Assembly (NCBI RefSeq): GCF_058153355.1
Contig: NZ_CM177019.1
Direction: 5' to 3' (one strand)
Length of the DNA: 64,000 nt
Every line of letters begins with the position of its first letter. Position 1 is the first letter of the stretch. A program made the translations under genes and the position numbers. Of the stretch, positions 8,992 through 10,219 are shown in pieces. The notes under the pieces were generated by a model. That model saw nothing but the letters and a program-made list of their open reading frames with translations. It was not told the DNA's origin and made no database searches.

Positions 8992-9382
8992 GATGAAATA
9001 TAATACGATGAATAACAACGAAATTATTTTATCACTGTGCGCTCGCATTAAAGAAACGCGTATCTCATTATCATTGACCCAACAGCAGTTAGCCGAGCGT
9101 GCATTGGTGGGCATAGCAACGGTCAAGCGGATTGAAAAGGGGGGAAGTTTAAATCTTGATACTCTCATTTCTCTTCTGCGCGCGCTGAATAAATTGCAAA
9201 ATCTCGATGCCATATTGTTCGAAGCAGAAATGCGTAATTTCAACGAAAATAGTTCCAGCGGCGAAGGGGCAGGGCGACTACAGGTACGCCAGCAACTGAC
9301 AGATTTAAACCAGAAGTCTCCAGCCCCGCACGCAGATGACCATAATTTTAGTACGGCGCTGGAAAATACCCTCTGCTGGTGA
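8984..9382 (+). CDS. XRE-family helix-turn-helix transcriptional regulator
   Basis: 132-aa ORF with HTH region LSLTQQQLAERALVGIATVKRIEKG; overlaps the 3' end of the serine dehydratase gene, suggesting co-transcription. Confidence 0.7.
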   Translation: MRKMKYNTMNNNEIILSLCARIKETRISLSLTQQQLAERALVGIATVKRIEKGGSLNLDTLISLLRALNKLQNLDAILFEAEMRNFNENSSSGEGAGRLQVRQQLTDLNQKSPAPHADDHNFSTALENTLCW

Positions 9383-10219
9383 TTATTCCTGTAAATACTG
9401 CGCATGGAAGCGCAGATGATCCTCTATAAAAGAGGCAATAAAGTAGTAACTGTGATCATATCCCGGCTGAATACGCAGCGTCATCGGCCACGCTTTTTGA
9501 CGCGCGGCTTCTGCCAGCACTGCGGGTTGTAGCTGGTCGGCAAGAAACTGATCATTATCGCCCTGATCAATCAGTGTCGGGATCGCATCCTGCGCATTAC
9601 TCGCATACATCAGCGCGCAACTGTCCCATTCCATCCAGTCATTTTTATCCTCACCCAGATAAGTGCTAAACGCTTTTATTCCCCACGGGACGCTGCACGG
9701 ATTCACAATCGGCGCAAAGGCGGAAACACTGGTGTATTTGCCAGGATTTTTCAGCGCCATAATCAATGCGCCGTGACCCCCCATGGAATGACCGCTAATA
9801 GCGCAGCGATCGCTGACGTTAAATTGCGATTGAATGAGAGTCGGTAATTCATCGCGCAGATAATCGTACATCCTGTAATGCGTCGCCCACGGTTTTTGTG
9901 TTGCGTTGAGATAAAACCCCGCGCCCTGACCTAAATCGTAGCCGTCGTCGTTGGCTACTTGTTCGCCGCGCGGACTGGTGTCTGGCATCACCAGTACAAT
10001 CCCCAGTTCCGCCGCTACGCGTTGGGCCCCCGCTTTGGTGGTGAAGTTCTCGTCATTGCAGGTTAATCCGGAGAGCCAGTACAGCACCGGCGGCGGGGTG
10101 TGATCGCGAGGCGGTGGAAGAAAGATGCTGAACGTCATCGGGCAATTTAAGGTACTGGAGTCGTGCCGCCAGCGTTGTTGCCAGCCTTCAAAACAGCGGT
10201 GCTCTTCGAGCATTTCCAT
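9383..10219 (-). CDS. yeiG: S-formylglutathione hydrolase (esterase D family)
   Basis: 278-aa ORF with serine hydrolase motif GHSMGGHGA; synteny next to folE. Confidence 0.9.

Follow-up and report, generated by a model that had tools for sequence, protein, structure and literature searches.

The zero-spacer junction between an XRE-family regulator gene and yeiG in a gene block carried by a minority of Escherichia coli

Genes and control elements of the locus

We analysed the cirA–yeiG locus in a 64,000-nucleotide stretch of contig NZ_CM177019.1 (RefSeq assembly GCF_058153355.1), which we refer to as a whole as the window. Between cirA and yeiG lie four genes that most E. coli strains lack, the last of which is an XRE-family helix-turn-helix (HTH) regulator gene that meets yeiG tail to tail. 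The features of the locus are as follows.

3148–5127, plus strand: cirA, catecholate siderophore receptor, the left flank (ORF list; RefSeq annotation of a genome 99.7% identical).
5135–5183: spacer between cirA and the MFS gene, with two hairpins (folding z = −3.5 on both strands; spacer comparison).
5186–6508, minus strand: MFS transporter of the organophosphate:phosphate antiporter type, UhpC/PgtP/GlpT-like (Pfam MFS_1, 1e-46).
6541–7428, minus strand: SerB-like HAD-IB phosphoserine phosphatase, 295 aa (TIGR00338 serB, 207.6 bits, above the cut-off of 144; Pfam HAD).
7429–7638: AT-rich control region from which the SerB-like gene and the dehydratase gene diverge (alignment of eight sequences from four genera; repeat search; promoter scan).
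7639–8991, plus strand: single-chain L-serine ammonia-lyase (dehydratase) of the iron-sulfur type, 450 aa (TIGR00720, 547 bits, above the cut-off of 345; Pfam SDH_beta and SDH_alpha).
8993–9382, plus strand: XRE-family HTH regulator, 129 aa (Pfam HTH_3, 2e-9; homologues 70–76% identical).
9380–9385: junction TGA/TTA, that is, the HTH stop on the plus strand and the yeiG stop (TAA) on the minus strand, with a 0-nt spacer.
9383–10219, minus strand: yeiG, S-formylglutathione hydrolase, 278 aa (TIGR02821, 394 bits), a deeply divergent allele.
9383–9390, minus strand: last 8 nt of yeiG (the stop and the last two codons), the true right edge of the island-linked sequence.

The cirA allele of the window encodes 659 aa, compared with 663 aa in other strains. 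Downstream of it, the first hairpin of the cirA–MFS spacer pairs ATGCCCGGCG (5135–5144) with CGCCGGGCAT (5152–5161), and the second pairs CCAGAA (5166–5171) with TTCTGG (5178–5183). The MFS transporter falls below all equivalog cut-offs (426 bits against 564 for the NCBIfam UhpC subfamily and 343 against 408 for the PgtP subfamily). The control region holds a palindrome, ATCACAGTTGTGAAT, at 7492–7506 and two direct repeats, AAAAGTAYYNTTTTTGATA, at 7523–7541 and 7562–7580, all conserved across genera, as well as a promoter-like site at 7544–7572 detected by the promoter scan; the conserved motifs are candidate operators for the HTH protein.

The HTH gene, whose start is ambiguous (8984 or 8993), begins 1 nt past the stop of the dehydratase gene and is therefore probably the last gene of the dehydratase operon. 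Its HTH_3 domain is N-terminal (residues 19–66; 37.6 bits against a Pfam cut-off of 23), its C-terminal Trp-TGA is invariant in all homologues compared, and its Ka is much lower than its Ks within E. coli. A role as the antitoxin of a type II toxin–antitoxin system (HipB/Y4mF-like) was considered and rejected, as TIGR03070 gives 41 bits against a cut-off of 71.65 and the neighbours are the dehydratase gene and yeiG, with no toxin gene. Going purely by family assignments, the four genes would form a module for phosphoserine-like import, dephosphorylation and serine deamination. Our literature search on the function of the cluster returned no paper on it, only incidental mentions of the Salmonella loci STM2194 and STM2195.

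Junction, block edges and haplotypes in E. coli

The stop codons of the HTH gene and yeiG lie on opposite strands and touch. Positions 9377–9394 read TGG TGA / TTA TTC CTG TAA, within the longer reading ...CTC TGC TGG TGA / TTA TTC CTG TAA ATA CTG... (9368–9400). According to the ORF list, the HTH frame (8984 or 8993 to 9382, plus strand) closes with TGA at 9380–9382 and the yeiG frame (9383–10219, minus strand) with TAA at 9385–9383, and the window sequence leaves a spacer of 0 nt. The two genes have adjacent coordinates in the NCBI annotation of five island-bearing E. coli genomes as well, including that of 2013C-4282, which is 99.7% identical to the window, and the 100-nt junction recurs ungapped in 88 of 5,426 complete genomes. 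Thus, the original prediction that the XRE gene ends at 9382 and the convergent yeiG at 9383, with their stops in contact, was confirmed by sequence, ORF list and RefSeq annotation. Both ORFs are genuine coding genes, their stops are adjacent or overlap, and the arrangement is kept in the orthologous pairs of other species, as befits an abutting convergent pair.

The four-gene cluster was found in 89 of the 5,426 complete E. coli genomes (1.6%) and never at another site; its alleles fall into classes of about 99.6, 97.2, 96.3 and 95.0% identity, and 4,255 nt align without an indel. The block has a G+C content of 42.8%, against 51.8% in the flank. Searches with Pfam and NCBIfam revealed no integrase or transposase among its four ORFs, the repeat search found no repeat or target-site duplication linking its two ends, and no tRNA gene lies in positions 1–14000; IS1 is present only as a secondary disruption in a few island-bearing strains. 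The block therefore shares atypical base composition and patchy distribution with mobile genomic islands, but not a mobility gene, an associated repeat, tRNA or att site, or a junction made by insertion.

Island-free genomes run from the cirA stop (TGA) through a 31-nt spacer with a single hairpin (GCCCGG-CGAA-CCGGGC) to the yeiG stop, as read in four genomes (BL21, P881, IAI39 and AF57), with a close variant in a fifth strain, SCPM. In some 30 listed island-free genomes, the matches to the two flanks extend over 564–577 bases of the record, as expected for the same short junction. On the left side of the block, homology between the window and island-free E. coli stops at 5144, past the left arm of the hairpin; the first 17 nt past the cirA stop, this arm among them, are common to both states, as is the CCGGGC right arm. 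On the right side, the edge lies within yeiG. The 3′ end of the gene in island-bearing E. coli is always TTATT(C/T)CTG, encoding a protein that ends in QE (as in the window) or QK before the stop TAA, whereas in BL21, P881, IAI39 and AF57 the last 8 nt are TCACTTCA (longer reading TCACTTCAG), the protein ends in LK and the stop is TGA; SCPM (L036) has TTATTTCA (longer reading TTATTTCAG), also encoding LK. The island-free strains IAI39 and AF57 carry a window-type yeiG body and switch exactly at 9390/9391: they differ from the window at 9384, 9386, 9388, 9390 and 9398, and then at no position until 9589. The terminal 8 nt of yeiG are completely linked to the island, and the heterologous island-linked block is 5145–9390. 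Alignment with island-free genomes thus defined both edges, at 5144 on the left and 9390/9391 on the right, and moved the right one away from the stop codon, so that the claim of an island ending exactly at the yeiG stop holds for gene content but not for sequence, which reaches 9390, 8 nt inside the gene.

Recombinants exist in both directions, as IAI39 and AF57 are mirrored by two island-bearing strains with a BL21-like yeiG body (L006 and L007). The block therefore appears to be exchanged between strains by homologous recombination in the cirA and yeiG flanks, up to the edge of homology. We rejected the idea that the island and the divergent yeiG allele always came in together, because IAI39 and AF57 have the allele without the island.

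The yeiG allele of the window differs from that of BL21 at 84 of 837 nt, corresponding to a Ks of 0.575, against Ks values of only 0.06 (folE) and 0.18 (yeiB); yeiG of E. coli and Citrobacter are separated by a Ks of 1.2–1.5. Only 17 genomes carry this allele at 99% identity or more, and 3,278 genomes are only 80–90% identical to it. Among the matches listed, a YeiG protein search gave E. coli entries almost throughout, with a single one from Shigella flexneri, and the protein clusters bear the label 'MULTISPECIES [Escherichia]'. YeiG is free to vary in its last two residues from genus to genus, and with about seven terminal sites that are nearly neutral, four differences accord with the depth of the haplotype. 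The yeiG Ks and the terminal differences argue that the cirA–yeiG locus of E. coli holds what appear to be two very old haplotypes, far older than typical E. coli diversity.

The block in other genera

Homologues of the HTH protein at 70–76% identity are present in Citrobacter koseri, Citrobacter freundii, Salmonella enterica and Scandinavium, and the contigs compared share the gene order lysP, cirA, MFS, SerB-like, lyase, HTH, yeiG, folE, yeiB, galS, mglB, with another TonB-dependent receptor in the place of cirA in Citrobacter. Citrobacter werkmanii and Citrobacter sp. FP75 also have the cluster, among the matches listed in the species scan. The stops of the HTH gene and yeiG are 0 nt apart in all E. 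coli alleles and in four Citrobacter lineages (C. koseri, C. freundii, C. werkmanii and FP75), and the genes overlap by 12 nt in S. enterica subsp. diarizonae, S. enterica subsp. enterica and Scandinavium, where the yeiG stop has been lost and the frame reads on for four codons into the HTH gene. The sole positive gap, 21 nt as annotated in one S. enterica strain, arises from a premature HTH stop. For Salmonella, we take STM2196–STM2198 to be the other three genes of the cluster, going by the LT2 annotation and by the loci compared here. STM2194 is yeiG (PMC10048834), and STM2195 is a putative DNA-binding protein with an orthologue in Typhi and none in K-12 (PMC3487940). Because Citrobacter, Salmonella and Scandinavium share both junction and site, the junction is unlikely to have been made by insertion into E. 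coli; it probably predates the species and goes back at least to the split of these genera.

The Citrobacter sequences also bear on the two yeiG ends. In C. freundii and C. werkmanii, the HTH end TGG TGA is directly followed by TCACTTCAG, the yeiG end of island-free E. coli, and the yeiG end of Citrobacter FP75, TTATTTCAG, is shared with the island-free SCPM. An HTH stop beside an LK-type end suggests that LK-stop is the ancestral end of yeiG and not a deletion artefact. An indel breakpoint inside yeiG, with the island supplying a new gene end, was rejected on the same grounds: Citrobacter has the HTH TGA directly beside the island-free type of end, and intermediate forms exist, one shared by FP75 and an island-free E. 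coli and another, TTATTTCTG, in L004. The yeiG ends are therefore homologous and merely diverged, with no breakpoint of foreign sequence.

Between E. coli and the other genera, identity is 59–65% for the SerB-like protein, 73–78% for the lyase, 70–75% for the HTH protein and 88–91% for the MFS transporter, values that argue against any sampled genus as a recent donor of the E. coli block. Members of the C. freundii complex cluster together in the island proteins, as they do in the flanking genes. The Scandinavium cluster is as close to that of E. coli as the Citrobacter cluster is, although the flanking YeiB is more distant, so descent may not have been strictly vertical, and genera may have exchanged the block long ago by way of the conserved flanks. 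Among the matches listed, the block is missing from Kluyvera, Leclercia, Enterobacter and Pseudocitrobacter; there, a hairpin or a REP-like element comes after yeiG, and in most of these genera cirA, in convergent orientation, lies just past it. The existence of block-less genera means that an acquisition did happen, but long ago. Island-free spacers are too short, or are filled by hairpins or REP-like elements, to show remnants of island genes.

Transcript ends and the origin of the junction

The terminator scan detected no terminator-like site at 9300–9500 on either strand, and the fold across the junction was no better than that of shuffled sequence (z = −0.7 and −1.5 for the two strands). 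No conserved or covarying structure emerged from ten aligned junctions (consensus folds of −4.7 and −9.0 kcal/mol), and there was no Rfam match at the junction. A 5-bp GC stem in the HTH 3′ coding region of the non-coli genera (GCGCCGC/GCGGCGC) was discarded because it shows only one-sided changes, which are explained by coding. The predicted lack of an intergenic terminator was thus upheld by the 0-nt spacer, the empty scan, folds equal to shuffles and the absence of a conserved hairpin. The cirA–MFS hairpins are the only terminator-like structure of the island-bearing locus, and every genus compared has a strong, genus-specific hairpin in this spacer. The hairpin of the island-free cirA–yeiG spacer stretches over both stop codons (z = −3.0). 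The mark of a bidirectional hairpin terminator, a G+C-rich stem-loop placed between the stops or across them, is therefore present at cirA–MFS and at the island-free cirA–yeiG but not at HTH–yeiG, and in island-bearing strains yeiG is without the hairpin that it has in island-free strains.

Because there is no terminator and no spacer, the dehydratase–HTH and yeiG transcripts must end inside the opposite gene. C exceeds G in the read-through RNAs in stretches that lie 160–260 nt past each stop; these C-rich, G-poor stretches would be compatible with Rho loading, rut-like composition being a weak indicator. Rho suppresses antisense read-through. Rho-dependent termination or polymerase collision inside the opposite gene would be the likeliest origin of the 3′ ends, and the read-through or head-on collision at this junction that had been proposed is plausible from the sequence. 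Collision-driven termination at convergent E. coli pairs, with heterogeneous 3′ ends in the absence of a hairpin, is described in the passage of 10.1101/2022.10.23.513370 that cites Ju et al. 2019.

The zero-spacer HTH–yeiG junction is real, and we consider it probably old and essentially passive. Salmonella, several Citrobacter species, Scandinavium and a small minority of E. coli share a syntenic four-gene block that lies next to yeiG, between this gene and the position of cirA, and in which the regulator gene stands tail to tail with yeiG (0 nt apart or overlapping by 12 nt), so the junction would have existed before E. coli. Within E. coli, block 5145–9390 would segregate as a deep presence/absence haplotype, transferred among strains through homologous recombination in the flanking genes cirA and yeiG rather than by insertion at the stop codon. 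Transcript 3′ ends would form inside the opposite gene, the sole hairpin of the locus being on the cirA side; in island-free strains it lies beside yeiG. Starting from the observed coordinates, conservation, distribution and terminator absence, we infer that Rho acting on untranslated antisense read-through RNA, head-on polymerase collision or both would end the transcripts, and that the zero spacer may be the end point of spacer erosion where an intergenic terminator is not needed; deletion trimming would go no further because neither protein's conserved C terminus can be cut (HTH ...W-stop; YeiG ...YL-x-x-stop). The E. coli block may have been retained, with loss in most strains, or may have been re-imported from a diverged Escherichia-like lineage.

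The original prediction had read the junction as a very precise insertion boundary. The low G+C content of the block and its presence in only 1.6% of complete E. coli genomes would suit a recent insertion of a foreign island exactly at the yeiG stop, creating a new junction of unrelated genes, and the block-less Kluyvera, Leclercia, Enterobacter and Pseudocitrobacter require an insertion at some remote time. However, a recent event is very improbable and for E. coli largely refuted: Citrobacter, Salmonella and Scandinavium have the same junction (0 or −12 nt) at the same chromosomal site, the block comes without integrase, transposase, tRNA or flanking repeat, and no close donor is in sight, with the HTH protein at most 76% identical in other genera. 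Moreover, the island-linked sequence enters yeiG up to 9390, recombinant haplotypes exist, the block behaves within E. coli as a deep presence/absence haplotype exchanged by flank recombination, and the island-free state keeps the ancestral LK-TGA end of yeiG, which is seen beside the HTH gene in Citrobacter too. The boundary therefore did not hold up as a mark of insertion. The reverse event, a single deletion from the right of the cirA hairpin to the HTH stop that turned an ancestral, cluster-bearing E. coli into the island-free majority, deserves tentative consideration. It fits the synteny with other genera, the 17 nt and the CCGGGC arm common to both states, and the uniform short junction of the island-free genomes listed, but it sits poorly with the 4 of the last 8 yeiG nt that differ between the states while the next 200 nt or so can be nearly identical, and with a yeiG Ks of 0.575 against BL21, which puts the age of the haplotypes far beyond that of ordinary E. 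coli diversity. The data would be explained at least as well if one of the two states had been imported from a diverged Escherichia-like lineage.

Passive apposition also has to be weighed against function. No true spacer has evolved in at least eight lineages of four genera (0 or −12 nt), over a time in which the cirA–MFS spacer was completely rewritten, and no terminator isolates the two units, observations that could point to selection for the zero spacer, with the dehydratase–HTH operon and yeiG modulating each other through transcriptional interference or antisense RNA. We regard such coupling as unlikely, because the exact spacing is not conserved (0 versus −12), a premature HTH stop is tolerated in one S. 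enterica strain, yeiG functions without the HTH neighbour in 98% of E. coli, and the junction shows neither conserved RNA structure nor covariation; there is no obvious metabolic link between detoxifying formaldehyde and catabolizing serine, and convergent overlaps are common without known function. A bolder version is more doubtful still: the apposition would be selected, read-through of an inducible dehydratase–HTH operon antisense into yeiG (or the reverse) would act as an interference or antisense switch, and the cluster would be an uncharacterized phosphoserine import–catabolism module whose haplotype in E. coli diverged long ago or entered by introgression (yeiG Ks 0.58 relative to the common allele). 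Finally, the short length (129 aa) and ambiguous start of the HTH ORF might suggest an annotation artefact, with the ORF not a real gene or ending elsewhere. This can be practically dismissed, given the HTH_3 match at 2e-9, a Ka much lower than Ks within E. coli, 70–76% identity across genera and an invariant C-terminal Trp-TGA, the stop position being independent of the choice of start.

Taken alone, the junction matters little, as another spacer-less convergent pair among dozens in E. coli, and read-through or collision there, if true, would be unremarkable. The locus does carry two cautions: what looks like a clean insertion boundary may turn out to be an old, long-conserved junction between genes, and a seeming island may be a syntenic block missing from most strains. 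Three side results may be worth more than the junction itself. The cirA–yeiG locus of E. coli has unusually deep haplotypes, the hyper-divergent yeiG in particular; the cluster, conserved but unstudied, is a candidate pathway that would take up organophosphates (phosphoserine-like) and break down serine, and its candidate operators are conserved as well; and the HTH–yeiG pair could be a natural test case for transcript ends in convergent genes without a terminator.

Set beside known systems, the pair resembles the convergent overlapping gene pairs, of which E. coli K-12 has 75 among 4,131 adjacent pairs (Huvet and Stumpf 2014, PMC4161906). Here, as there, two real genes on opposite strands have stops that touch or overlap with no room for a terminator, and the stop positions shift slightly between species (0 versus −12 nt). 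Within the first 50 kb of the window's genome region there are eight convergent pairs, with spacers of 58, 0, 70, 382, 17, 192, −20 and 42 nt, the 20-nt overlap being that of yehW/yohO in the window. The HTH–yeiG pair differs in joining the core gene yeiG to an accessory cluster found in 1.6% of E. coli, yet with a junction kept across four genera. With bidirectional terminators and collision-driven termination it shares a convergent layout in which transcripts must end in an overlapping zone; the island-free cirA–yeiG, with a single hairpin in a 31-nt spacer, is the typical bidirectional-terminator arrangement, whereas HTH–yeiG lacks a spacer as well as a conserved stem-loop at which a pause could be positioned. 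Classical genomic islands, which are integrase-mediated and associated with tRNA or att sites, resemble the block in low G+C content relative to the flanks and in patchy distribution among strains, but the block has no integrase, repeats or tRNA, lies at the same site with the same junction in other genera and spreads by flank recombination. Another counterpart is the orthologous, syntenic cluster STM2195–STM2198 beside yeiG (STM2194) in Salmonella, which differs in that its yeiG encodes 285 aa and overlaps the 3′ end of the HTH gene by 12 nt.

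The yeiG allele and the flanks of the cluster

The window carries a yeiG gene far removed from the alleles common in E. coli: it differs from that of BL21 at 84 of 837 nucleotides, with a Ks of 0.575 compared with 0.06 for the adjacent folE. This high divergence spans window positions 9383-10132; starting at 10133, it does not exceed 2%. Among 5426 complete E. coli genomes, only 17 carry the window allele at an identity of at least 99%, and in 3278 yeiG is merely 80-90% identical to it. A related allele (approximately 97.5%) is present in IAI39, CE10 and AF57, which lack the four-gene cluster. 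These comparisons suggest that the cirA-yeiG locus carries a haplotype that is either ancient or introgressed.

At the other flank, the window cirA encodes 659 amino acids and has a 12-nt deletion relative to the 663-amino-acid form of other strains; its divergence is locally raised to 6.8% (window 4501-4750). The cirA copies of IAI39 and AF57 are frameshifted according to their annotation. In place of cirA, the Citrobacter koseri and C. freundii genomes (L009 and L013, 1864-3858) have a TonB-dependent receptor gene that lies on the opposite strand and whose product shares only 35-36% identity with CirA. The cluster thus has no conserved neighbour on its left, whereas yeiG on its right is conserved.

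Altered copies and other features of the window

IS1A breaks the cluster in a few E. coli genomes, including CFS3246 (locus L007, 4414-5321) and those of cluster matches H88-H90. The insertion sequence has removed most of the SerB-like gene and the dehydratase gene from these copies, which keep the MFS gene together with an HTH gene that is shortened but still abuts yeiG. In the S. enterica subsp. enterica locus L097 (6355-6390), the HTH gene has a premature TAA 11 codons upstream of the ancestral TGA, resulting in an annotated HTH-yeiG gap of 21 nt; the corresponding codon in subsp. diarizonae is TAC.

Elsewhere in the window, a second convergent pair without a spacer overlaps by 20 nt (44507-44526):
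43795-44526, + strand, yehW
44507-44614, - strand, yohO

A second accessory block, which is not in BL21, lies between yohJ and dusC (23605-29607). It encodes a LysR regulator, the 3-hydroxybenzoate transporter MhbT, gentisate 1,2-dioxygenase, a fumarylacetoacetate hydrolase family protein, maleylacetoacetate isomerase and 3-hydroxybenzoate 6-monooxygenase, and is a gentisate pathway.

The four-gene cluster and its control region

The cluster (5186-9382) comprises genes for an organophosphate-type MFS antiporter, a SerB-like phosphatase, an L-serine ammonia-lyase and the HTH protein. From this gene content, it looks like a self-contained route for the uptake and catabolism of phosphoserine or a similar compound. 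The SerB-like and dehydratase genes diverge from a control region with these motifs:
7429-7638, divergent control region
7492-7506, palindrome ATCACAGTTGTGAAT, conserved across genera
7523-7541 and 7562-7580, two 19-nt direct repeats AAAAGTAYYNTTTTTGATA, conserved across genera

The two AAAAGTAYYNTTTTTGATA repeats bracket a promoter-like site. These motifs are invariant or nearly so in E. coli, Citrobacter, Salmonella and Scandinavium, with the surrounding sequence turned over. The palindrome and direct repeats are candidate operators, to which the HTH protein perhaps binds. A literature search found no publication on the four-gene cluster; its Salmonella counterpart is the region adjoining STM2194/STM2195.
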